NCBI GenBank assembly: GCA_965206985.1
Contig: CBDBLF010000021.1
Coordinates: 38,204-102,203 of the forward strand
DNA: 64,000 bases
Source of the DNA: Spirochaetota bacterium
Lineage (GTDB): Bacteria > Spirochaetota > Leptospiria > Turneriellales > CBDBES01
Reading direction: 5' to 3'
Below are positions 15,121-42,537 of this stretch, piece by piece; within the stretch, counting starts at the first letter, position 1; each line of letters starts with the position of its first letter. The position numbers were made by a program, and so were the translations under genes. The notes under the pieces are model-generated. The model made no database searches. It was not told the origin of the DNA and saw only the letters and a list, made by a program, of their open reading frames with translations.

Positions 15121-17006
15121 GAGCTTGTGCAGGAACTAGGATTTTTCTTGCTTTTCTGTGTTCTTCTTTGTTTATGTCTTATTATGAAACGATTTATGAA
15201 AAGTGATAGAGATCAAGTTATGCTGTTTTCGCATACTATAGCAGACAATTTAGAAGAAAATCACGAGGTTTATGCCTTTGCTGCCTTGTTAGATAAAATT
15301 CCTATGAAACCATTTCTTTCTAAGTACTCAAAAGAAGGGGGTCGGGCTTACCATCCGGTTATAATGCTGGGATGCCTTTTTTATGGCTTTCATCGTGGAT
15401 GGAGAAGCAGCAGAGAATTACAAAAAGCCTGTGAAGAGAACGACGCCATGCGTTATTTAGTTGGTGGTCATAAAGTAAAGTTTCGGTCTATTGCTGAATT
15501 CCGTGTTAATTTTGGTAAAGAAATTGGCGAAGTTTTTAATTACTCTGTATCTTTGCTATCCCACAAAAAGAAAAATATTGGTATTGATGTTAAGGTAGAT
15601 GGAACTAAAATCAAAGCCAGTGCTGCTGACGATCAAACATACAAAAAGTCAGATTTAGAGGAACGTAAAAGAGCTATACAGCAAGAGATCTTAGAGTATC
15701 TACGCTCAGGTATGGAATTAGATATTGAGGAAGATAAACTATATGGTAAAGACAACAGTGGCTATGAGCTTAATCCTGAAGAGGTAGATACGATCATTGA
15801 GGAGTTTATTCGCTTACAAAAAGCGAGTGAAAAGGCAAAGAGAGAGTCATTAAAAACAGCAGAAGGAAAGCAAAGTGAACCAGCCGAGTTTTCTACATCT
15901 GTTGAAAAAGATTCTTCAGAAACTATAGAAGGTACACAGGATATAGAAGCTCTAAAAACAGGAGAAAAAGAAGTTGAGGTCTTTTTAGAAGATACAACTA
16001 ATTCTCATGCTAACGAGCCAGAATTATTGATAAATGAAGACCAGGCTGCAGAGGATAATGATTCTGTTATGCTTAGGAAAGCTCAAAAGTATGTTACGAT
16101 CAGTAAAAGTCTGGAAGAGAATCAAGAGTCTGCTTCTGATTCTAAAATAAATCTTACTGATCCAGATGCTAAATTCATGAAACGGAATGGTAAAATTTCT
16201 CAAAGCTACAACATTCAAGTTACCTCATCAGAAGGCTATATTTTGGCAGCTGACATTGCTGAAGCTAATTCAGAAAATGATTTAGAGCAATTAGCTCCTA
16301 CCCTTTCTAAAGCTGAGTCAAACACAGGGACCAGTATACAGACAGCTTCTGCAGATTCGGGTTACTTTCATTCAAGTGGTTTGGAATACCTGGATTCAAA
16401 AGGGATCAATGGTTTTATACCTTCACCTGATCAGGTAGCCAAAGAAAGAAAAGGAGAAGAGGATTCAGGTTATGAAGCTCATCAGTTTAAATATGACGAG
16501 GATGATGATTCTTGGGTTTGCCCCGAGGGTAAAACCTTAGAATTTCATAATGAATCTGTGAAAGATAAAAAGAAATATACTCATTATCATGGTAAACCTC
16601 CTGACTGTGTCATTTGCCCTGCCAGAGAACAATGTTGTACGAGCGAAGAAGAGTTACGCAGAGGTTATCGCAAATTGTCAGTAGACTCTGGTTTTGCTTT
16701 AAAACATGAAATGATCAAGAAGATGAATTCAGAAGAAGCAAAGTCTTTCTATAAAAAGCGAGCTTCTGAAATTGAACCCATTTTTGGAATTTTGAAACAA
16801 GCCAAAAAGTTCAGAGAATTCTTGCTCAGAGGCAGTAAAAAGGTTCAAATAGAGGTAAAAATCGCAGCTACAGCATTTAATTTTGGCAAAATGGTACGAG
16901 AACAACTTGCATAAACTATAAATTCCTTGACATATTTGAAAAATGAGACTGACGCAGCAAATATCTCATAAAATGCACTGAAAAATCCTAGTTCCTGCAC
17001 AAGCTC
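15121..17006 (+). mobile_element. IS1182-family insertion sequence, copy A (1886 bp)
   Basis: TIR GAGCTTGTGCAGGAACTAGGATTTTTC, perfect match at both ends; 4-bp TSD TTGC (15117-15120 / 17007-17010). Confidence 0.93.
15184..16914 (+). CDS. IS1182-family DDE transposase (576 aa)
   Basis: GGRAYHP, SSRELQKAC, VDGTKIKA, TDPDA, SYNIQ, ADSGY, CPEG, EPIFG motifs. Confidence 0.93.
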   Translation: MKRFMKSDRDQVMLFSHTIADNLEENHEVYAFAALLDKIPMKPFLSKYSKEGGRAYHPVIMLGCLFYGFHRGWRSSRELQKACEENDAMRYLVGGHKVKFRSIAEFRVNFGKEIGEVFNYSVSLLSHKKKNIGIDVKVDGTKIKASAADDQTYKKSDLEERKRAIQQEILEYLRSGMELDIEEDKLYGKDNSGYELNPEEVDTIIEEFIRLQKASEKAKRESLKTAEGKQSEPAEFSTSVEKDSSETIEGTQDIEALKTGEKEVEVFLEDTTNSHANEPELLINEDQAAEDNDSVMLRKAQKYVTISKSLEENQESASDSKINLTDPDAKFMKRNGKISQSYNIQVTSSEGYILAADIAEANSENDLEQLAPTLSKAESNTGTSIQTASADSGYFHSSGLEYLDSKGINGFIPSPDQVAKERKGEEDSGYEAHQFKYDEDDDSWVCPEGKTLEFHNESVKDKKKYTHYHGKPPDCVICPAREQCCTSEEELRRGYRKLSVDSGFALKHEMIKKMNSEEAKSFYKKRASEIEPIFGILKQAKKFREFLLRGSKKVQIEVKIAATAFNFGKMVREQLA

Positions 17007-26015: not shown

Positions 26016-26334
26016 CTTTTGACCTTAAACCTGTTAACTTAGGTATAAGGTCTCGTCACTCAATTTTAAGATATTTTTTATTTTTTTCCATCAGCTCTTT
26101 GGTAGACAAATATGAGACTGGGAAGGAACTAGGTTTTAGTTCGTGGAGAAAACCTACTGAGTATTTCTCAATTAACAATCTGGCCAAATTATACTTTTTA
26201 TCATTATCTAATGATACAGGCTTACTTTCAATATTTTCACGTTCTAAAAATAACTCTTTAAAGCACCATAAAAAAAATATTTTGACCCAATTTTCTTAGT
26301 TTTCTCCCAGTCTTTTTTTTTCCTATCTTCAGCT

Positions 26335-27438
26335 CTAATTATAGGGATGGAGAATAGGATTGTACCCCCCTACGACCATTGGCATCTTTTGAAATAAATA
26401 GTCCAGTCGAAACGGTGGTAAATTTAATATTTGTTTGTCAATAGTTGTGCTTTCCTCTCGGATCAGCTGCCAGGGCGATTTATTCTCTTTGTAAGAATTT
26501 TTTCTTATTGAATTGAACATCAATAGATAGGAGCCAGCTTTGTTGAGAAAGTCTTCTCTTGAATTATACGTTTCATTCAGGTAAAGGTGATCCTCAATCA
26601 ATCTATGAGTCGTTTCAACATCAGACTGCCAAGTATGCGCTCCAGCAGGGATCGTCTGGTGTGGCACACCATAACTGGCTAATACTTTTGTAAACTCCGA
26701 ATCTCCTTTTTTATTCCAAGCACCAATAAACTCTGAGCCATTATCTGTTTGCCCTCTCGTATTATTTTTCTTTAAATCAACCCCTGATTTTACAAGATGA
26801 TCTAAAATTACCTCCATAAACAGACAAGAGTATGCCATATTATACTCATCTGCAAAAGCTAGAAATTGTAAGCCAGAAAAAACTTCTCTGAAGGTATATT
26901 GATATTTCGGTACAATATTTTCCTGAATATAAGGCCAAAGCTCAGGAATATCGTATAAATGCTTCGTATCTACGTCAAATTGCTTAAATAAACCCCATAA
27001 TTTCTTAATTTCACGCAAATTTTGCTTCGTTTTATGTTTTCTACGCTTTTTTTTCAAGAGTGCTTGCTCCCTCCACGCTCTGCGAATGGCCTTGACACTC
27101 AAGTCTAGTTGGTAAACATTCTTCAGTTCCTGAGCACCAAAGCCTCGACGTTTCTTTTTAAGAAAGCAAACATAAGCCTTTTCAAAGTCTGTGATTGCAT
27201 GTGGTGAGTAGTGTGGAGCGTGGCTCTTGTCTTCCAAGCCAACGTATTTCTCTGATTCAAACCTACGAAACCACTTTTTTACTGTTTTTACAGTCGTTTT
27301 AAACATTCTGGCTGTTGGCTTGAAACCATGCTTCTTGGCATAATGAACCATTTGCATTCTGTATAACTTTTTGTCTTTACTATTTCGCATTACTGCCGAA
27401 TACCTGTTTAGACAAATAACCTGAGAAGGGTGCTTCAT
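26335..27438 (-). CDS. IS481-like DDE transposase (367 aa)
   Basis: N-terminal HTH (ARMFKTTVKTVKKWFRRF); DVDTK, QTDNGSEF, VETTHR; stop codon lies in the target duplication. Confidence 0.88.
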   Translation of the reverse strand: MKHPSQVICLNRYSAVMRNSKDKKLYRMQMVHYAKKHGFKPTARMFKTTVKTVKKWFRRFESEKYVGLEDKSHAPHYSPHAITDFEKAYVCFLKKKRRGFGAQELKNVYQLDLSVKAIRRAWREQALLKKKRRKHKTKQNLREIKKLWGLFKQFDVDTKHLYDIPELWPYIQENIVPKYQYTFREVFSGLQFLAFADEYNMAYSCLFMEVILDHLVKSGVDLKKNNTRGQTDNGSEFIGAWNKKGDSEFTKVLASYGVPHQTIPAGAHTWQSDVETTHRLIEDHLYLNETYNSREDFLNKAGSYLLMFNSIRKNSYKENKSPWQLIREESTTIDKQILNLPPFRLDYLFQKMPMVVGGYNPILHPYN

Positions 27439-27603
27439 TAGGAACCTCTGTTTTATTTGATGATTTAACGTCGGCCTTTTGATGCACCTTTTTTAGGAAA
27501 ATGTCTTTCACTTGCTCTACCAGTAAACCCAAGCCTTTTGAACCAAATAACTTGATTTGAACCAATTCTGAACCAACTAATGATGGTCGTAGGGGGGTAC
27601 TAT

Positions 27604-29489
27604 GAGCTTGTGCGGGAACTAGGATTTTTCTTGCTTTTCTGTGTTCTTCTTTGATTATGTCTTATTATGAAACGATTTATGAAAAGTGATAGAGATCAAG
27701 TTATGCTGTTTTCGCATACTATAGCAGATAATTTAGAAGAAAATCACGAGGTTTATGCCTTTGCTGCCTTGTTAGATAAAATTCCTATGAAACCATTTCT
27801 TTCTAAGTACTCAAAAGAAGGGGGTCGGGCTTACCATCCGGTTATAATGCTGGGATGCCTTTTTTATGGCTTTCATCGTGGATGGAGAAGCAGCAGAGAA
27901 TTACAAAAAGCCTGTGAAGAGAACGACGCCATGCGTTATTTAGTTGGTGGTCATAAAGTAAAGTTTCGGTCTATTGCTGAATTCCGTGTTAATTTTGGTA
28001 AAGAAATTGGCGAAGTTTTTAATTACTCTGTATCTTTGCTATCCCACAAAAAGAAAAATATTGGTACTGATGTTAAGGTAGATGGAACTAAAATCAAAGC
28101 CAGTGCTGCTGACGATCAAACATACAAAAAGTCAGATTTAGAGGAACGTAAAAGAGCTATACAGCAAGAGATCTTAGAGTATCTACGCTCAGGTAGAGAA
28201 TTAGATATTGAGGAAGATAAACTATATGGTAAAGACAACAGTGGCTATGAGCTTAATCCTGAAGAGGTAGATACGATCATTGAGGAGTTTATTCGCTTAC
28301 AAAAAGCGAGTGAAAAGGCAAAGAGAGAGTCATTAAAAACAGCAGAAGGAAAGCAAAGTGAACCAGCCGAGTTTTCTACATCTGTTGAAAAAGATTCTTC
28401 AGAAACTATAGAAGGTACACAGGATATAGAAGCTCTAAAAACAGGAGAAAAAGAAGTTGAGGTCTTTTTAGAAGATACAACTAATTCTCATGCTAACGAG
28501 CCAGAATTATTGATAAATGAAGACCAGGCTGCAGAAGATAATGATTCTGTTATGCTTAGGAAAGCTCAAAAGTATGTTACGATCAGTAAAAGTCTGGAAG
28601 AGAATCAAGAGTCTGCTTCTGATTCTAAAATAAATCTTACTGATCCAGATGCTAAATTCATGAAACGGAATGGTAAAATTTCTCAAAGCTACAACATTCA
28701 AGTTACCTCATCAGAAGGCTATATTTTGGCAGCTGACATTGCTGAAGCTAATTCAGAAAATGATTTAGAGCAATTAGCTCCTACCCTTTCTAAAGCTGAG
28801 TCAAACACAGGGACCAGTATACAGACAGCTTCTGCAGATTCGGGTTACTTTCATTCAAGTGGTTTGGAATACCTGGATTCAAAAGGGATCAATGGTTTTA
28901 TACCTTCACCTGATCAGGTAGCCAAAGAAAGAAAAGGAGAAGAGGATTCAGGTTATGAAGCTCATCAGTTTAAATATGACGAGGATGATGATTCTTGGGT
29001 TTGCCCCGAGGGTAAAACCTTAGAATTTCATAATGAATCTGTGAAAGATAAAAAGAAATATACTCATTATCATGGTAAACCTCCTGACTGTGTCATTTGC
29101 CCTGCCAGAGAACAATGTTGTACGAGCGAAGAAGAGTTACGCAGAGGTTATCGCAAATTGTCAGTAGACTCTGGTTTTGCTTTAAAACATGAAATGATCA
29201 AGAAGATGAATTCAGAAGAAGCAAAGTCTTTCTATAAAAAGCGAGGTTCTGAAATTGAACCCATTTTTGGAATTTTGAAACAAGCCAAAAAGTTCAGAGA
29301 ATTCTTGCTCAGAGGCAGTAAAAAGGTTCAAATAGAGGTAAAAATCGCAGCTACAGCATTTAATTTTGGCAAAATGGTACGAGAACAACTTGCATAAACT
29401 ATAAATTCCTTGACATATTTGAAAAATGAGACTGACGCAGCAAATATCTCATAAAATGCACTGAAAAATCCTAGTTCCTGCACAAGCTC
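27604..29489 (+). mobile_element. IS1182-family IS, copy B, nested in the IS481-like IR
   Basis: 1886 bp; TSD CTAT at 27600-27603 / 29490-29493. Confidence 0.93.
27667..29397 (+). CDS. IS1182-family transposase
   Basis: Near-identical to 15184-16914. Confidence 0.93.
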   Translation: MKRFMKSDRDQVMLFSHTIADNLEENHEVYAFAALLDKIPMKPFLSKYSKEGGRAYHPVIMLGCLFYGFHRGWRSSRELQKACEENDAMRYLVGGHKVKFRSIAEFRVNFGKEIGEVFNYSVSLLSHKKKNIGTDVKVDGTKIKASAADDQTYKKSDLEERKRAIQQEILEYLRSGRELDIEEDKLYGKDNSGYELNPEEVDTIIEEFIRLQKASEKAKRESLKTAEGKQSEPAEFSTSVEKDSSETIEGTQDIEALKTGEKEVEVFLEDTTNSHANEPELLINEDQAAEDNDSVMLRKAQKYVTISKSLEENQESASDSKINLTDPDAKFMKRNGKISQSYNIQVTSSEGYILAADIAEANSENDLEQLAPTLSKAESNTGTSIQTASADSGYFHSSGLEYLDSKGINGFIPSPDQVAKERKGEEDSGYEAHQFKYDEDDDSWVCPEGKTLEFHNESVKDKKKYTHYHGKPPDCVICPAREQCCTSEEELRRGYRKLSVDSGFALKHEMIKKMNSEEAKSFYKKRGSEIEPIFGILKQAKKFREFLLRGSKKVQIEVKIAATAFNFGKMVREQLA

Positions 29490-29518
29490 CTATCATCCTT
29501 CTCTCTCCCACTTCAGCT

Positions 29519-30622
29519 CTAATTATAGGGATGGAGAATAGGATTGTACCCCCCTACGACCATTGGCATCTTTTGAAATAAATAGTCCAGTCGAAACGGT
29601 GGTAAATTTAATATTTGTTTGTCAATAGTTGTGCTTTCCTCTCGGATCAGCTGCCAGGGCGATTTATTCTCTTTGTAAGAATTTTTTCTTATTGAATTGA
29701 ACATCAATAGATAGGAGCCAGCTTTGTTGAGAAAGTCTTCTCTTGAATTATACGTTTCATTCAGGTAAAGGTGATCCTCAATCAATCTATGAGTCGTTTC
29801 AACATCAGACTGCCAAGTATGCGCTCCAGCAGGGATCGTCTGGTGTGGCACACCATAACTGGCTAATACTTTTGTAAACTCCGAATCTCCTTTTTTATTC
29901 CAAGCACCAATAAACTCTGAGCCATTATCTGTTTGCCCTCTCGTATTATTTTTCTTTAAATCAACCCCTGATTTTACAAGATGATCTAAAATTACCTCCA
30001 TAAACAGACAAGAGTATGCCATATTATACTCATCTGCAAAAGCTAGAAATTGTAAGCCAGAAAAAACTTCTCTGAAGGTATATTGATATTTCGGTACAAT
30101 ATTTTCCTGAATATAAGGCCAAAGCTCAGGAATATCGTATAAATGCTTCGTATCTACGTCAAATTGCTTAAATAAACCCCATAATTTCTTAATTTCACGC
30201 AAATTTTGCTTCGTTTTATGTTTTCTACGCTTTTTTTTCAAGAGTGCTTGCTCCCTCCACGCTCTGCGAATGGCCTTGACACTCAAGTCTAGTTGGTAAA
30301 CATTCTTCAGTTCCTGAGCACCAAAGCCTCGACGTTTCTTTTTAAGAAAGCAAACATAAGCCTTTTCAAAGTCTGTGATTGCATGTGGTGAGTAGTGTGG
30401 AGCGTGGCTCTTGTCTTCCAAGCCAACGTATTTCTCTGATTCAAACCTACGAAACCACTTTTTTACTGTTTTTACAGTCGTTTTAAACATTCTGGCTGTT
30501 GGCTTGAAACCATGCTTCTTGGCATAATGAACCATTTGCATTCTGTATAACTTTTTGTCTTTACTATTTCGCATTACTGCCGAATACCTGTTTAGACAAA
30601 TAACCTGAGAAGGGTGCTTCAT
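29519..30622 (-). CDS. IS481-like DDE transposase
   Basis: Protein identical to copy 1. Confidence 0.88.
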   Translation of the reverse strand: MKHPSQVICLNRYSAVMRNSKDKKLYRMQMVHYAKKHGFKPTARMFKTTVKTVKKWFRRFESEKYVGLEDKSHAPHYSPHAITDFEKAYVCFLKKKRRGFGAQELKNVYQLDLSVKAIRRAWREQALLKKKRRKHKTKQNLREIKKLWGLFKQFDVDTKHLYDIPELWPYIQENIVPKYQYTFREVFSGLQFLAFADEYNMAYSCLFMEVILDHLVKSGVDLKKNNTRGQTDNGSEFIGAWNKKGDSEFTKVLASYGVPHQTIPAGAHTWQSDVETTHRLIEDHLYLNETYNSREDFLNKAGSYLLMFNSIRKNSYKENKSPWQLIREESTTIDKQILNLPPFRLDYLFQKMPMVVGGYNPILHPYN

Positions 30623-30787
30623 TAGGAACCTCTGTTTTATTTGATGATTTAACGTCGGCCTTTTGATGCACCTTTTTTAGGAAAATGTCTTTCACTTGCT
30701 CTACCAGTAAACCCAAGCCTTTTGAACCAAATAACTTGATTTGAACCAATTCTGAACCAACTAATGATGGTCGTAGGGGGGTACTAT

Positions 30788-32673
30788 GAGGCTGTGCGGG
30801 AACTAGGATTTTTCTTGCTTTTCTGTGTTCTTCTTTGTTTATGTCTTATTATGAAACGATTTATGAAAAGTGATAGAGATCAAGTTATGCTGTTTTCGCA
30901 TACTATAGCAGACAATTTAGAAGAAAATCACGAGGTTTATGCCTTTGCTGCCTTGTTAGATAAAATTCCTATGAAACCATTTCTTTCTAAGTACTCAAAA
31001 GAAGGGGGTCGGGCTTACCATCCGGTTATAATGCTGGGATGCCTTTTTTATGGCTTTCATCGTGGATGGAGAAGCAGCAGAGAATTACAAAAAGCCTGTG
31101 AAGAGAACGACGCCATGCGTTATTTAGTTGGTGGTCATAAAGTAAAGTTTCGGTCTATTGCTGAATTCCGTGTTAATTTTGGTAAAGAAATTGGCGAAGT
31201 TTTTAATTACTCTGTATCTTTGCTATCCCACAAAAAGAAAAATATTGGTACTGATGTTAAGGTAGATGGAACTAAAATCAAAGCCAGTGCTGCTGACGAT
31301 CAAACATACAAAAAGTCAGATTTAGAGGAACGTAAAAGAGCTATACAGCAAGAGATCTTAGAGTATCTACGCTCAGGTAGAGAATTAGATATTGAGGAAG
31401 ATAAACTATATGGTAAAGACAACAGTGGCTATGAGCTTAATCCTGAAGAGGTAGATACGGTCATTGAGGAGTTTATTCGCTTACAAAAAGCGAGTGAAAA
31501 GGCAAAGAGAGAGTCATTAAAAACAGCAGAAGGAAAGCAAAGTGAACCAGCCGAGTTTTCTACATCTGTTGAAAAAGATTCTTCAGAAACTATGGAAGGT
31601 ACACAGGATATAGAAGCTCTAAAAACAGGAGAAAAAGAAGTTGAGGTCTTTTTAGAAGATACAACTAATTCTCATGCTAACGAGCCAGAATTATTGATAA
31701 ATGAAGACCAGGCTGCAGAGGATAATGATTCTGTTATGCTTAGGAAAGCTCAAAAGTATGTTACAATCAGTAAAAGTCTGGAAGAGAATCAAGAGTCTGC
31801 TTCTGATTCTAAAATAAATCTTACTGATCCAGATGCTAAATTCATGAAACGGAATGGTAAAATTTCTCAAAGCTACAACATTCAAGTTACCTCATCAGAA
31901 GGCTATATTTTGGCAGCTGACATTGCTGAAGCTAATTCAGAAAATGATTTAGAGCAATTAGCTCCTACCCTTTCTAAAGCTGAGTCAAACACAGGGACCA
32001 GTATACGGACAGCTTCTGCAGATTCGGGTTACTTTCATTCAAGTGGTTTGGAATACCTGGATTCAAAAGGGATCAATGGTTTTATACCTTCACCTGATCA
32101 GGTAGCCAAAGAAAGAAAAGGAGAAGAGGGTTCAGGTTATGAAGCTCATCAGTTTAAATATGACGAGGATGATGATTCTTGGGTTTGCCCCGAGGGTAAA
32201 ACCTTAGAATTTCATAATGAATCTGTGAAAGATAAAAAGAAATATACTCATTATCATGGTAAACCTCCTGACTGTGTCATTTGCCCTGCCAGAGAACAAT
32301 GTTGTACGAGCGAAGAAGAGTTACGCAGAGGTTATCGCAAATTGTCAGTAGACTCTGGTTTTGCTTTAAAACATGAAATGATCAAGAAGATGAATTCAGA
32401 AGAAGCAAAGTCTTTCTATAAAAAGCGAGGTTCTGAAATTGAACCCATTTTTGGAATTTTGAAACAAGCCAAAAAGTTCAGAGAATTCTTGCTCAGAGGC
32501 AGTAAAAAGGTTCAAATAGAGGTAAAAATCGCAGCTACAGCATTTAATTTTGGCAAAATGGTACGAGAACAACTTGCATAAACTATAAATTCCTTGACAT
32601 ATTTGAAAAATGAGACTGACGCAGCAAATATCTCATAAAATGCACTGAAAAATCCTAGTTCCTGCACAAGCTC
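30788..32673 (+). mobile_element. IS1182-family IS, copy C, nested in the IS481-like IR
   Basis: 1886 bp; TSD CTAT at 30784-30787 / 32674-32677; variant left end GAGGCTGTGCGGGAAC. Confidence 0.93.
30851..32581 (+). CDS. IS1182-family transposase
   Basis: ATG at 30851; private substitutions DTVIEE, ETMEG, SIRTAS, EEGSG. Confidence 0.93.
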   Translation: MKRFMKSDRDQVMLFSHTIADNLEENHEVYAFAALLDKIPMKPFLSKYSKEGGRAYHPVIMLGCLFYGFHRGWRSSRELQKACEENDAMRYLVGGHKVKFRSIAEFRVNFGKEIGEVFNYSVSLLSHKKKNIGTDVKVDGTKIKASAADDQTYKKSDLEERKRAIQQEILEYLRSGRELDIEEDKLYGKDNSGYELNPEEVDTVIEEFIRLQKASEKAKRESLKTAEGKQSEPAEFSTSVEKDSSETMEGTQDIEALKTGEKEVEVFLEDTTNSHANEPELLINEDQAAEDNDSVMLRKAQKYVTISKSLEENQESASDSKINLTDPDAKFMKRNGKISQSYNIQVTSSEGYILAADIAEANSENDLEQLAPTLSKAESNTGTSIRTASADSGYFHSSGLEYLDSKGINGFIPSPDQVAKERKGEEGSGYEAHQFKYDEDDDSWVCPEGKTLEFHNESVKDKKKYTHYHGKPPDCVICPAREQCCTSEEELRRGYRKLSVDSGFALKHEMIKKMNSEEAKSFYKKRGSEIEPIFGILKQAKKFREFLLRGSKKVQIEVKIAATAFNFGKMVREQLA

Positions 32674-32701
32674 CTATCATCCTTCTCTCTCCCATTCAGC
32701 T

Positions 32702-33805
32702 CTAATTATAGGGATGGAGAATAGGATTGTACCCCCCTACGACCATTGGCATCTTTTGAAATAAATAGTCCAGTCGAAACGGTGGTAAATTTAATATTTG
32801 TTTGTCAATAGTTGTGCTTTCCTCTCGGATCAGCTGCCAGGGCGATTTATTCTCTTTGTAAGAATTTTTTCTTATTGAATTGAACATCAATAGATAGGAG
32901 CCAGCTTTGTTGAGAAAGTCTTCTCTTGAATTATACGTTTCATTCAGGTAAAGGTGATCCTCAATCAATCTATGAGTCGTTTCAACATCAGACTGCCAAG
33001 TATGCGCTCCAGCAGGGATCGTCTGGTGTGGCACACCATAACTGGCTAATACTTTTGTAAACTCCGAATCTCCTTTTTTATTCCAAGCACCAATAAACTC
33101 TGAGCCATTATCTGTTTGCCCTCTCGTATTATTTTTCTTTAAATCAACCCCTGATTTTACAAGATGATCTAAAATTACCTCCATAAACAGACAAGAGTAT
33201 GCCATATTATACTCATCTGCAAAAGCTAGAAATTGTAAGCCAGAAAAAACTTCTCTGAAGGTATATTGATATTTCGGTACAATATTTTCCTGAATATAAG
33301 GCCAAAGCTCAGGAATATCGTATAAATGCTTCGTATCTACGTCAAATTGCTTAAATAAACCCCATAATTTCTTAATTTCACGCAAATTTTGCTTCGTTTT
33401 ATGTTTTCTACGCTTTTTTTTCAAGAGTGCTTGCTCCCTCCACGCTCTGCGAATGGCCTTGACACTCAAGTCTAGTTGGTAAACATTCTTCAGTTCCTGA
33501 GCACCAAAGCCTCGACGTTTCTTTTTAAGAAAGCAAACATAAGCCTTTTCAAAGTCTGTGATTGCATGTGGTGAGTAGTGTGGAGCGTGGCTCTTGTCTT
33601 CCAAGCCAACGTATTTCTCTGATTCAAACCTACGAAACCACTTTTTTACTGTTTTTACAGTCGTTTTAAACATTCTGGCTGTTGGCTTGAAACCATGCTT
33701 CTTGGCATAATGAACCATTTGCATTCTGTATAACTTTTTGTCTTTACTATTTCGCATTACTGCCGAATACCTGTTTAGACAAATAACCTGAGAAGGGTGC
33801 TTCAT
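32702..33805 (-). CDS. IS481-like DDE transposase
   Basis: Protein identical to copies 1 and 2. Confidence 0.88.
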   Translation of the reverse strand: MKHPSQVICLNRYSAVMRNSKDKKLYRMQMVHYAKKHGFKPTARMFKTTVKTVKKWFRRFESEKYVGLEDKSHAPHYSPHAITDFEKAYVCFLKKKRRGFGAQELKNVYQLDLSVKAIRRAWREQALLKKKRRKHKTKQNLREIKKLWGLFKQFDVDTKHLYDIPELWPYIQENIVPKYQYTFREVFSGLQFLAFADEYNMAYSCLFMEVILDHLVKSGVDLKKNNTRGQTDNGSEFIGAWNKKGDSEFTKVLASYGVPHQTIPAGAHTWQSDVETTHRLIEDHLYLNETYNSREDFLNKAGSYLLMFNSIRKNSYKENKSPWQLIREESTTIDKQILNLPPFRLDYLFQKMPMVVGGYNPILHPYN

Positions 33806-33987
33806 TAGGAACCTCTGTTTTATTTGATGATTTAACGTCGGCCTTTTGATGCACCTTTTTTAGGAAAATGTCTTTCACTTGCTCTACCAGTAAACCCAAG
33901 CCTTTTGAACCAAATAACTTGATTTGAACCAATTCTGAACCAACTAATGATGGTCGTAGGGGGGTACTATCATCCTTCTCTCTCCCA
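32709..33987 (-). mobile_element. IS481-like element copy 3 (intact, 1279 bp)
   Basis: Uninterrupted TIRs; TTCAGCTCTAATTA at 32695-32708 and 33988-34001. Confidence 0.92.
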
Positions 33988-34006
33988 TTCAGCTCTAATT
34001 ATAAAC

Positions 34007-34035
34007 TTGACACAATGATGTTATATTTATCTCTG
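34007..34035 (+). promoter_or_regulatory. Probable 16S rRNA promoter
   Basis: Perfect TTGACA at 34007-34012, about 130 bp upstream of 16S; -10 not clearly assignable. Confidence 0.55.
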
Positions 34036-34141: not shown

Positions 34142-35673
<1,532 letters not shown>

Positions 35674-36980: not shown

Positions 36981-38306
36981 GTGAAATTAGGAAAGCCATT
37001 AGCAATTTGTTCGCCAAAAAGGTTACCGTTTGCGCAAATTGGCAAGGCTTTAGCCAAGTATTCGGCACCACACTTGGGTCTAAAAGTAGCAAAGTCTGTC
37101 ATCGAGACATCAAAGCTTTCTTTGGATAGCTTTGATGGTATTGTCACAGGAGAGGGTTTCCCTAATGCCCCAAATTCTGCTAGAGTGGTCGCGAATCTGT
37201 TACGTCTGGACCACAGCACCACGGCTGTTACTGTAAATAATAATTGTGTCTCAGGTATGGAGGGGGTTACTGAAGCTTCGCGTCGCATTTCAATGGGCGA
37301 AGGAGATATTTTTTTAGTCATCGGTGAAGAGTCACAAACATCCATGCCTTTTATCATACAAGGTGCTAGACAAAACAAAAAAACGGCAACCCTCGATAAA
37401 CTAAAGCCACTTTTACCAAATGACCTTCCCGAAGGAGTCGATATTAGAGATATGCTAGAAGACGGTCTTGGTGATGGAGAAACCAGCTTTGGGATGCAGG
37501 TTACAGCTGAAATACTTGCCCAAAATTATTCTATAAAGCGAGAAACTACCGATCATTTTGCTCATCAAAGTTTCAAAAGAGCATATGAGGCATTTGACCA
37601 AGGTTTTTATGATGAACATATTATTCCCGTTGACGATGGTTCCGGTGGTGAGTTAAAAGCCGATGAAGCTGTTCTTCTAAGAAAAGGCCTTGTCGAGAAC
37701 CCTGGTCGTATGGCACGTGCTATGCTCCTCTTTGAAAATCAATATTTAAAATTTGACGAATTTAAAGAAAAATATAAAAAATACTTGAAGAAAACTCATG
37801 GACCCACCATCACTATTTTCTCTGCTAGCCCACGCTCCGATGGTGCAGCTGGTCTGATTCTAACCACAGTGGAAAAAGCAAAGAGCCTCGGTCTTAAAAT
37901 TGATGCCTTGATCACCGGCTGGAAGAACAAAGGTGTTGATCCAAACCTAATGGGAATTGGTCAAGCGGTGGCTACGTTGGATCTTCTAAGTGATATGAAT
38001 ATGAAACCAGACGACCTTGATTATATAGAAATTCATGAGGCGTTTGCCGCAACTGCTGTTGCTACCCTAGAAGAAATAAAAATAAAGTCAGGTTACGATT
38101 GGCAGAAAAAATTTGAAGACAAGAAAATTAATCCTCATGGTGGTTCCATTGCAATCGGTCATCCTTTTGGAGCAACAGGTGTGCGTCTTGCCATGAATGC
38201 AATCATGAATTTCCATCAAGATGCCGATGCGAACAAAGTATTGATTACGGCGTGCGCTCACGGTGGTGTAGCTGGTGCGATGATGATTGAGCGGCCTGCC
38301 GCTTGA
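36981..38306 (+). CDS. Thiolase (acetyl-CoA C-acyltransferase)
   Basis: NNNCVSG, DGAA, EIHEAFA, GGSIAIGHPFGATG, CAHGG. Confidence 0.93.
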   Translation: MKLGKPLAICSPKRLPFAQIGKALAKYSAPHLGLKVAKSVIETSKLSLDSFDGIVTGEGFPNAPNSARVVANLLRLDHSTTAVTVNNNCVSGMEGVTEASRRISMGEGDIFLVIGEESQTSMPFIIQGARQNKKTATLDKLKPLLPNDLPEGVDIRDMLEDGLGDGETSFGMQVTAEILAQNYSIKRETTDHFAHQSFKRAYEAFDQGFYDEHIIPVDDGSGGELKADEAVLLRKGLVENPGRMARAMLLFENQYLKFDEFKEKYKKYLKKTHGPTITIFSASPRSDGAAGLILTTVEKAKSLGLKIDALITGWKNKGVDPNLMGIGQAVATLDLLSDMNMKPDDLDYIEIHEAFAATAVATLEEIKIKSGYDWQKKFEDKKINPHGGSIAIGHPFGATGVRLAMNAIMNFHQDADANKVLITACAHGGVAGAMMIERPAA

Positions 38307-40929: not shown

Positions 40930-41047
<118 letters not shown>

Positions 41048-41248: not shown

Positions 41249-42355
41249 TTAATAATGATAGGGATGGAGAATAGGATTGTACCCCCCTACGACCATTGGC
41301 ATCTTTTGAAATAAATAGTCCAGTCGAAACGGTGGTAAATTTAATATTTGTTTGTCAATAGTTGTGCTTTCCTCTCGGATCAGCTGCCAGGGCGATTTAT
41401 TCTCTTTGTAAGAATTTTTTCTTATTGAATTGAACATCAATAGATAGGAGCCAGCTTTGTTGAGAAAGTCTTCTCTTGAATTATACGTTTCATTCAGGTA
41501 AAGGTGATCCTCAATCAATCTATGAGTCGTTTCAACATCAGACTGCCAAGTATGCGCTCCAGCAGGGATCGTCTGGTGTGGCACACCATAACTGGCTAAT
41601 ACTTTTGTAAACTCCGAATCTCCTTTTTTATTCCAAGCACCAATAAACTCTGAGCCATTATCTGTTTGCCCTCTCGTATTATTTTTCTTTAAATCAACCC
41701 CTGATTTTACAAGATGATCTAAAATTACCTCCATAAACAGACAAGAGTATGCCATATTATACTCATCTGCAAAAGCTAGAAATTGTAAGCCAGAAAAAAC
41801 TTCTCTGAAGGTATATTGATATTTCGGTACAATATTTTCCTGAATATAAGGCCAAAGCTCAGGAATATCGTATAAATGCTTCGTATCTACGTCAAATTGC
41901 TTAAATAAACCCCATAATTTCTTAATTTCACGCAAATTTTGCTTCGTTTTATGTTTTCTACGCTTTTTTTTCAAGAGTGCTTGCTCCCTCCACGCTCTGC
42001 GAATGGCCTTGACACTCAAGTCTAGTTGGTAAACATTCTTCAGTTCCTGAGCACCAAAGCCTCGACGTTTCTTTTTAAGAAAGCAAACATAAGCCTTTTC
42101 AAAGTCTGTGATTGCATGTGGTGAGTAGTGTGGAGCGTGGCTCTTGTCTTCCAAGCCAACGTATTTCTCTGATTCAAACCTACGAAACCACTTTTTTACT
42201 GTTTTTACAGTCGTTTTAAACATTCTGGCTGTTGGCTTGAAACCATGCTTCTTGGCATAATGAACCATTTGCATTCTGTATAACTTTTTGTCTTTACTAT
42301 TTCGCATTACTGCCGAATACCTGTTTAGACAAATAACCTGAGAAGGGTGCTTCAT
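41249..42355 (-). CDS. IS481-like DDE transposase (368 aa; C-terminus set by target)
   Basis: Identical to the other copies except ending HPYHY rather than HPYN. Confidence 0.88.
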   Translation of the reverse strand: MKHPSQVICLNRYSAVMRNSKDKKLYRMQMVHYAKKHGFKPTARMFKTTVKTVKKWFRRFESEKYVGLEDKSHAPHYSPHAITDFEKAYVCFLKKKRRGFGAQELKNVYQLDLSVKAIRRAWREQALLKKKRRKHKTKQNLREIKKLWGLFKQFDVDTKHLYDIPELWPYIQENIVPKYQYTFREVFSGLQFLAFADEYNMAYSCLFMEVILDHLVKSGVDLKKNNTRGQTDNGSEFIGAWNKKGDSEFTKVLASYGVPHQTIPAGAHTWQSDVETTHRLIEDHLYLNETYNSREDFLNKAGSYLLMFNSIRKNSYKENKSPWQLIREESTTIDKQILNLPPFRLDYLFQKMPMVVGGYNPILHPYHY

Positions 42356-42537
42356 TAGGAACCTCTGTTTTATTTGATGATTTAACGTCGGCCTTTTGAT
42401 GCACCTTTTTTAGGAAAATGTCTTTCACTTGCTCTACCAGTAAACCCAAGCCTTTTGAACCAAATAACTTGATTTGAACCAATTCTGAACCAACTAATGA
42501 TGGTCGTAGGGGGGTACTATCATCCTTCTCTCTCCCA
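41259..42537 (-). mobile_element. IS481-like element copy 4 (intact, 1279 bp)
   Basis: Same TIRs; TSD ATTCTTAATAATGA at 41245-41258 / 42538-42551. Confidence 0.93.

Follow-up and report, generated by a model that had tools for sequence, protein, structure and literature searches.

An IS1182-family element with an insertion hot spot in the end of an IS481-like element that forms head-to-tail arrays in a Spirochaetota genome

In staphylococci, the insertion sequences (ISs) IS1272 and TnSha1 were shown to insert repeatedly and in both orientations into the stems of hairpins or inverted repeats (PMC4923244; PMC5678879). As far as the accounts of IS1272 go, the element replaces part of a short hairpin and makes no target duplication. 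IS4321 and IS5075 of the IS1111 group are described to enter a fixed position in the terminal inverted repeat of Tn21-family transposons by use of an RNA-guided DEDD recombinase. These two elements insert in a single orientation. A preferred natural target within the end of another mobile element is also known for IS231A, an IS4-family element with a DDE transposase, which enters the terminal repeat of Tn4430. Finally, abutted left and right ends, as present in the tandem dimers and circle junctions of the IS3, IS30, IS21 and IS256 families, were reported to act as substrate for integration (PMC3299598). Here we describe a stretch of 64,000 nucleotides from a Spirochaetota bacterium (positions 38,204 to 102,203 of contig CBDBLF010000021.1, assembly GCA_965206985.1; the whole stretch is called the window in the following), in which an IS1182-family element is found twice at the same position in the end of an IS481-like element.

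Between positions 26343 and 33987 of the window, three copies of an IS481-like element of 1278 bp, the host, for which the working name ISA is used, form a head-to-tail array, and the first two of these are each split by an IS1182-family element of 1886 bp (copies B and C; copy A lies elsewhere in the window), with array repeat periods of 3184 and 3183 bp. The coordinates bear out what a first-pass annotation of this DNA had stated, i.e., that both nested copies duplicate CTAT (27600-27603/29490-29493 for B and 30784-30787/32674-32677 for C) at the outer edge of the 18-bp core GTACCCCCCTACGACCAT and its complement, thereby cutting off the terminal 17 bp, CATCCTTCTCTCTCCCA. Both B and C were inserted after position 1261 of 1278 of ISA, 17 bp away from the transposase-proximal tip. 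The + strand of ISA has the ends AGGGATGGAG...CTCTCCCA, and its open reading frame (ORF) is encoded on the - strand, so that the end to the right in the window is the transposase-proximal one (the left inverted repeat, IRL, by the usual convention). The bodies of ISA copies 1, 2 and 3 are identical across 1261 bp, and a fourth copy in the window is 100% identical to the others. In copies 3 and 4 the proximal end is intact (33971-33987 and 42521-42537), again as annotated. Successive ISA copies are separated by the target duplication TTCAGCTCTAATTAT, and the identical 15 bp border the whole array.

The position hit by B and C is used throughout the genome. The assembly comprises 2.69 Mb in 33 contigs (referred to by working labels such as C7 or, with a position, C14:193259) and holds approximately 80 ISA and 70 IS1182 copies. 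An exact probe recovered 74 proximal ISA ends, with 63 intact ends and 11 that adjoin an IS1182 end, in ten cases after CTAT and in one case three bp further inward, with seven elements in forward and four in inverted orientation. Counted via the severed tips, 17 ISA tips abut an IS1182 end, i.e., 17 of 80 ISA ends are occupied; the excess of 17 over 11 reflects later IS-mediated rearrangement, which is called common here because matching duplications are missing at 15 of the 74 ISA copies. Genome-wide, no IS1182 element was found elsewhere in the 1261-bp ISA body, and among the 30 IS1182 sites outside of ISA that carry matching duplications a consensus is nearly absent, no position exceeding 0.17 bit. 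The first-pass annotation had proposed to tabulate all IS1182 sites of the genome, and such a table reveals a strong preference for this one position of the ISA end. As 17 of 80 ends are occupied, no other site in ISA is used and the sites elsewhere are near random, the CTAT region of the proximal ISA end is a true insertion hot spot for the IS1182-family element, far beyond chance. The cut wobbles slightly: mostly CTAT is duplicated, once GTAC and once the 7 bp GTACTAT. The latter case is located in the ISA end at C14:194552-196444, a locus at which the two copies of the ISA target duplication differ by one base.

Some further features of IS1182 targets were observed. At the sites outside of ISA, GAGG/CCTC occurs in excess immediately next to the 4-bp duplication (by manual count in 8 of 60 half-sites). 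Several copies of the IS1182-family element are located within or next to a repeated motif like GAGGCTGTGCGGGAAATATGGTTG that is similar to its own left end (e.g., C7:210964, C11:251273, C14:86715, C11:126914 and C7:133684). The pairing was also looked for in other data. In 40 related genomes searched with the 121-nt ISA-IS1182 junction neither half was present in any; a plasmid collection searched with both elements gave no match, and two metagenome scans, one for the severed tail followed by 15/16 nt and the distal end of ISA and one for its proximal end, returned 0 matches.

In several respects the element resembles the published descriptions of IS1272/TnSha1, namely in its transposase family, in repeated independent hits on one target, in the use of both orientations and in the lack of a consensus elsewhere. 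Unlike for IS1272, a clean 4-bp duplication is generated, nothing is deleted, there is no general preference for hairpins, and the target is a single position in the end of another IS. An insertion that replaces a hairpin as described for IS1272 was rejected on account of the 4-bp duplications, the absence of any loss of ISA bases and targets that are no more foldable than random DNA. With IS4321/IS5075, as these are described, the element shares the fixed position in a terminal inverted repeat; the difference is that the transposase here is of the DDE type, both orientations occur and the cut is not strictly fixed. An RNA-guided hunter of IS ends of the IS110/IS1111 kind was ruled out by the DDE-type transposase (a guide RNA was not searched for). 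IS231A uses a DDE transposase and a target in a terminal repeat as in the present pair but differs in belonging to another family, in its duplication of about 10-12 bp and in its host, a Tn3-family transposon.

The question arises whether B and C are two insertions or one insertion that was copied. They differ at 10 nucleotides (positions 4, 5, 51, 126, 673, 807, 933, 978, 1220 and 1343) and at 4 amino acids counted from the shared ATG, compared to 0 differences between the 1261-bp ISA bodies, a contrast of the kind that the first-pass annotation had read as suggesting independent insertions. In a comparison of 49 full-length IS1182 copies with 41 informative sites, all 10 differences fall at sites that are also shared by other copies and none is private. 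B shows 0 differences from C1:28113 and C7:17259, neither of which lies in ISA, and C shows 0 differences from C29:55568. The distance of 10 between B and C compares with a mean of 9.3 over all pairs of the 49 copies, and 37 of the 48 other copies are nearer to B than C is. As B and C are identical to copies elsewhere and most copies are closer to B, the two are, as far as the sequence can tell, independent insertions from different IS1182 sublineages and not a duplicated unit. The phylogeny that the annotation had asked for agrees with its suggestion, placing B and C in different subclades of an IQ-TREE tree and not as closest relatives, with no branch reaching 95% support. A constraint that unites the B and C haplotypes lowers the log-likelihood by 34 units (approximately unbiased (AU) test, p 0.045, marginal), whereas uniting the 15 ISA-resident copies in one clade lowers it by 96 units and is rejected (AU p 0.00016); the ISA-resident state needs 13 changes on the IS1182 tree.

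These data bear on two explanations in which the hot spot was struck only once. If IS1182 had been inserted once and unequal crossing-over had then amplified the ISA-IS1182 unit, with the differences between B and C added later by mutation or gene conversion, this would account for the regular period of 3184/3183 bp and for the identical ISA bodies. We regard this as very unlikely, given that none of the 10 differences is private and that each haplotype occurs elsewhere unchanged, that 10 differences in 1886 bp of IS1182 stand against 0 in 1261 bp of ISA and that a clade of B and C is disfavored by the AU test; also the spacers of 16 and 15 bp would be unexpected, since unequal crossing-over would copy one spacer. 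Alternatively, a composite of ISA and IS1182 might have spread as one unit on the ISA ends, so that all occupied ends are copies of one event. Occupied solo copies do show normal 15/16-bp ISA duplications around the whole composite. Against such a spread, insertions are found in both orientations, one lies 3 bp further inward and one has a 7-bp duplication; the insertion splits two conserved blocks of the ISA end, and the residents are scattered over the tree as described above. The tree test of the resident copies rejects the composite spread unless gene conversion is rampant, and it is the least credible of the explanations considered here.

The first-pass annotation had further claimed that the IS1182-family element inserts only at junctions of two inverted repeats. 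This does not hold for the genome as a whole: of the 17 occupied tips six are followed by the duplication and another ISA copy (one each on C7, at C14:193259, on C22 and at C29:43098, and two in the window), whereas 11 are followed by unique DNA and are hence solo. In three of the solo cases (C2, C4 and C11:77149) matching 15/16-bp duplications are present on both sides of the whole composite, and these look like plain ISA insertions that were hit later by IS1182. As 11 of the 17 occupied ends are solo, neither a junction nor a cruciform nor a junction-bound transposase is required for targeting by IS1182. Of the annotation's idea of a parasite of a parasite that targets the inverted repeat of the junction, the pairing of the two elements stands, and is in fact reciprocal (see below), while the need for a junction falls with the solo hits and their matching duplications.

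A form of this idea that allows for solo hits is that IS1182 is drawn to the long inverted repeat or to the transposase-bound synapse of abutting ISA copies, the solo hits representing a weaker side reaction or former junctions. All six tandem junctions but only 11 of 74 solo ends are occupied, the CTAT of a bare junction would border the loop of a perfect 18-bp stem, and for IS1272/TnSha1 of the same family repeated insertion into such stems in both orientations was described (PMC4923244; PMC5678879). On the other side, most of the occupied ends are solo, three with intact matching duplications, and the proximal arm alone is hit, the mirror position in the distal arm never. Moreover, the loop would comprise about 54 nt, the 4-bp duplication without deletion is unlike IS1272, and the 30 other IS1182 targets show no hairpin preference, folding no better than random DNA (mean -4.55 versus -5.10 kcal/mol, p 0.25). 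Taken together, we consider an attraction by the junction as improbable, although it deserves consideration.

For the arrays, the target choice of ISA itself is decisive. Among the 74 ISA copies the duplication has a length of 15 bp in 47 and of 16 bp in 12. Of 68 unique flanks, 46 have an exact TTGAC that begins 20 or 21 nt beyond the proximal tip, compared to 0.8% of random windows, and the orientation of ISA is fixed relative to this motif, with the proximal tip 19-20 bp upstream and an A/T-rich stretch in between. An ORF of at least 150 amino acids starts 20-350 nt downstream in the same direction in 39 of the 68 flanks versus 192 of 1500 random positions, and the targets of ISA are likely promoter edges. 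In the window, the anchor motif TTGACA is located about 135 bp upstream of the 16S rRNA gene. Relatives of ISA with approximately 50% identity in metagenome-assembled genomes of Acidobacteriota share the end blocks TGGGAG...GTA(T/C)CCCCC and duplications of 14-16 bp, and in 8 of 9 of these copies GTCAATA(G/A), with the complement of TTGAC, lies just beyond the duplication on the same side; the TTGAC-anchored targeting rule is old. Neither TTGAC-anchored insertion by an IS481-like element nor insertion of an IS1182-family element into IS481-like ends was found described in the published literature (supplements not covered; subscription journals largely missing).

Since the duplication and TTGAC stay intact beside the tip after insertion, the same site can be used again, resulting in arrays with the same spacer, and the way in which ISA chooses its targets accounts for the tandem arrays. 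The spacers in the window are 16 bp (C plus 15 bp, matching the C left of the array) and then 15 bp, which fits a first insertion with a stagger of 16 bp followed by insertions with a stagger of 15 bp on the right. Three of the five array loci use a target of the CAGCTCTAA type, which is also hit at many paralogous sites. At C22:135000-154500 there is a run of paralogous ORFs of 577-785 amino acids without a Pfam domain, with an ISA copy in front of each of them that is located at the same promoter-like repeat (ACAGCTCTAACTTTT TTTGTTGAC...).

The relation between the two elements is not one-sided. IS1182 in turn has two sites that ISA has entered recurrently, each of them upstream of a TTGAC-like motif within IS1182, namely the left terminal repeat, with duplication of positions 8-22/23 (three loci), and the region near positions 1787-1802 (three loci). 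The parasitism of ISA and IS1182 is mutual. IS1182 copies are also found as head-to-tail pairs 4 bp apart, with CTAT at C30:21414-23972 and ATTG at C17:10358-16675; as only 4 bp lie between the paired copies, one copy was inserted exactly at the tip of the other.

Our preferred explanation, to which we assign a probability of about 0.72, is that of two high-copy ISs, each with a strong target preference and each carrying a target for the other, in an IS-ridden genome. The IS1182-family element transposes with a 4-bp duplication and has its hot spot at the CTAT that separates the conserved inner block GTACCCCCC of ISA from the 17-bp tip; this spot has been struck many separate times, in both orientations and with or without a neighboring ISA, B and C being two such hits. 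ISA chooses the TTGAC motif in one orientation with its tip 19-20 bp upstream and duplicates 15 or 16 bp, and with target and TTGAC kept beside the tip repeated insertion leads to head-to-tail arrays. In the window there would have been three such insertions upstream of the 16S rRNA gene in the order ISA1, ISA2 and ISA3, each added on the TTGAC side.

One further step may be needed, since arrays are seen only where the end of the upstream copy is already split by IS1182: another ISA follows 6 of the 17 occupied but 0 of the 63 intact ends (Fisher 4.1e-5; with the window counted once 1.9e-4), and each of the six tandem ISA junctions of the assembly carries an IS1182. Within 21 bp of the re-used target the sequence does not depend on the presence of IS1182, and the difference should therefore lie in the behavior of the intact end. 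On the one hand, an intact junction of end, 15 bp and end might resemble the reactive circle junction of copy-out-paste-in elements and be quickly lost; with the reactivity reported for abutted ends in the families mentioned above, it would be understandable if a bare ISA-ISA junction did not persist. Unlike in these dimers and circles, the spacer of 15-16 bp between ISA copies is the target duplication. On the other hand, transposase bound at the intact inner block might hinder re-insertion beside it. In this context, the suggestion of the first-pass annotation that the insertion disarms and locks the junction is a live explanation for the persistence of arrays, not for the choice of the target.

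Two simpler accounts of the arrays have to be weighed. A neutral effect of age would mean that old ISA copies had time for both a hit by IS1182 and a second ISA without any interaction. IS1182 copies differ more among themselves (mean of 9.3 differences) than the ISA copies, nearly all of which are 100% identical, and the activity of ISA may thus be more recent. Yet several of the junction-resident IS1182 copies show 0 differences from others and hence are recent too, and a split of 0 of 63 versus 6 of 17 is hard to obtain without interaction, making such an effect quite unlikely. Moreover, the tandem array might be a mis-join of repeats in the assembly, which is a draft of 33 contigs with about 250 near-identical IS copies, and the public contig-level data cannot span the array, the short-word contigs of the four public runs being too short for repeats of 3.2 kb. 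Four further loci, located on other contigs and having spacers of their own, show the same architecture, the junction words reach a depth of several copies, and distinct B and C haplotypes are not expected from collapse or polishing; we see little chance, in the order of that of unit amplification, that the array is such an artefact. The words of the public runs support the host-IS1182 junctions and the presence of about 75-100 copies. Both elements also occur in a second sample and under a second organism label, at a depth too low to read the state of the array locus.

Several points weigh against the preferred explanation. The evidence base consists of one assembly and the short-word contigs of four runs, and the order of the array is taken from the assembly alone. 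We infer the split-end step; as all ISA copies are identical, the insertion of IS1182 and the arrival of the next ISA cannot be ordered from the sequence. The events that enter the Fisher test may not be independent owing to kinship or rearrangement, and it is conceivable that the 11 solo occupied ends derive from junctions whose downstream ISA was removed when the 15-bp repeats recombined. Gene conversion among the approximately 70 IS1182 copies could mimic an independent origin of B and C, for which the AU rejection of a common clade is only marginal. In the flanks of ISA no clear -10 element follows TTGAC. Finally, the CTAT region, attractive as it is to IS1182, does not fit the weak GAGG/CCTC flank preference of the other sites, and its local hairpin is weak (-2.5 kcal/mol).

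The assignment of the two elements to families is as follows. The transposase of A, B and C matches the IS1182 family model NF033551 with 330.6 bits (cut-off 270) and also the Pfam domains DDE_Tnp_1_6, DUF772 and DDE_Tnp_1; the element has perfect terminal inverted repeats of 27 bp, and matching 4-bp duplications are present at 39 copies. The 607-aa (A) and 605-aa (C) ORFs that were listed for the window begin outside of the element and are mechanical artefacts. ISA encodes a single ORF of 367 amino acids on the - strand, which aligns end to end with the IS481 model NF033577 (27-325 on 2-283 of 284) at 95.3 bits, below the cut-off of 224, and for this reason the element is termed IS481-like only. 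Its N-terminus matches HTH_28 (30.2 bits, cut-off 25) and, marginally, LZ_Tnp_IS481 (22.7 versus 22.2 bits), the match to the rve catalytic domain is not significant (E 0.053, 14.2 bits, cut-off 32.6), and there is a weak match to an IS3 C-terminal domain (E 3.6e-5). Target duplications of the IS481 family range from 4 to 15 bp, and the 15-16 bp of ISA are at or just above this limit. The transposase ORF has no internal stop, crosses the distal tip and ends in the flank (26335-26345 and 41249-41262), its length being 367 or 368 amino acids depending on the site; in copy 1 it covers 26335-27438 and runs through the distal tip into the flank.

Table 1. Features of the ISA array and of further ISA and IS1182 copies; positions refer to the window unless a contig label is given.
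Feature	Position	Strand	Remarks
Array target duplication, left copy, TTCAGCTCTAATTAT	26327..26342		15 bp, or 16 bp counting the preceding C at 26327
ISA copy 1 body, positions 1-1261	26343..27603	-	CTAT at 27600-27603; identical to copies 2 and 3
IS1182-family element B, 1886 bp	27604..29489	+	transposase 27667-29397, 576 aa
Second CTAT (29490-29493) and severed 17-bp tip of ISA copy 1 (29494-29510)	29490..29510		
ISA1/ISA2 spacer, C + TTCAGCTCTAATTAT, 16 bp	29511..29526		
ISA copy 2, positions 1-1261	29527..30787	-	
IS1182-family element C, 1886 bp	30788..32673	+	start common with B at 30851; listed ORF from 30764 begins inside ISA
Second CTAT and severed 17-bp tip of ISA copy 2	32674..32694		
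ISA2/ISA3 spacer, TTCAGCTCTAATTAT, 15 bp	32695..32709		
ISA copy 3, complete 1278 bp	32710..33987	-	end intact
Right target duplication (33988-34002), AAAC, TTGACA (34007-34012)	33988..34012	+	TTGACA is the ISA anchor motif
16S rRNA gene	34142..35673	+	directly downstream of the array
ISA copy 4, solo	41260..42537	-	end intact; 15-bp duplication ATTCTTAATAATGAT
IS1182 copy A	15121..17006	+	outside ISA; 4-bp duplication TTGC
ISA copies inside IS1182	C11:49092-50369, C11:205652-206929, C14:229780-231057; C1:8866-10143, C17:12348-13625, C22:261444-262721		

The array is surrounded by ordinary chromosomal genes, upstream for a hydrolase, a pseudouridine synthase, gltX, ribD and citrate synthase, and downstream for a heptose epimerase, a thiolase and murI. 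The 16S rRNA gene in the window has no adjoining 23S rRNA gene, and a lone 5S rRNA gene is found at 40930-41046 on the other strand, 5 kb away and beside ISA copy 4; the rRNA genes appear to be unlinked. A third high-copy element of the IS1 family (1197 bp, 8-bp duplication, about 99 near-full copies, e.g., C9:26461-27657) interrupts many ISA and IS1182 copies, and by rough arithmetic ISA, IS1182 and the IS1-family element together make up about 13% of the genome.

As a summary, a few pairs of mobile elements are known in which one has an insertion hot spot within the end of the other, and here an IS1182-family element has struck an IS481-like end at least about 13 separate times within a single genome. 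A more far-reaching reading, doubtful in its entirety and put forward tentatively, would see a specific reciprocal pair of parasites, in which the IS1182-type element is a dedicated hunter of ISA ends recognizing a protein-bound or distorted end, the splitting of ends lets ISA pile into stable arrays at its hottest targets including the promoter region of the 16S rRNA gene, and ISA belongs to phylum-spanning IS481-like integrators that enter promoter edges at a measured distance from TTGAC in one orientation. The genome provides a natural data set in which a DDE transposase with otherwise almost random targets has one extreme hot spot. A motif that survives insertion as an anchor shows how tandem IS arrays get built, and a testable reason is offered for the survival of arrays only with one end broken. 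Moreover, the TTGAC-anchored insertion of ISA in one orientation, with relatives in other phyla too, may aid in understanding, and perhaps in exploiting, site-directed DDE transposition.

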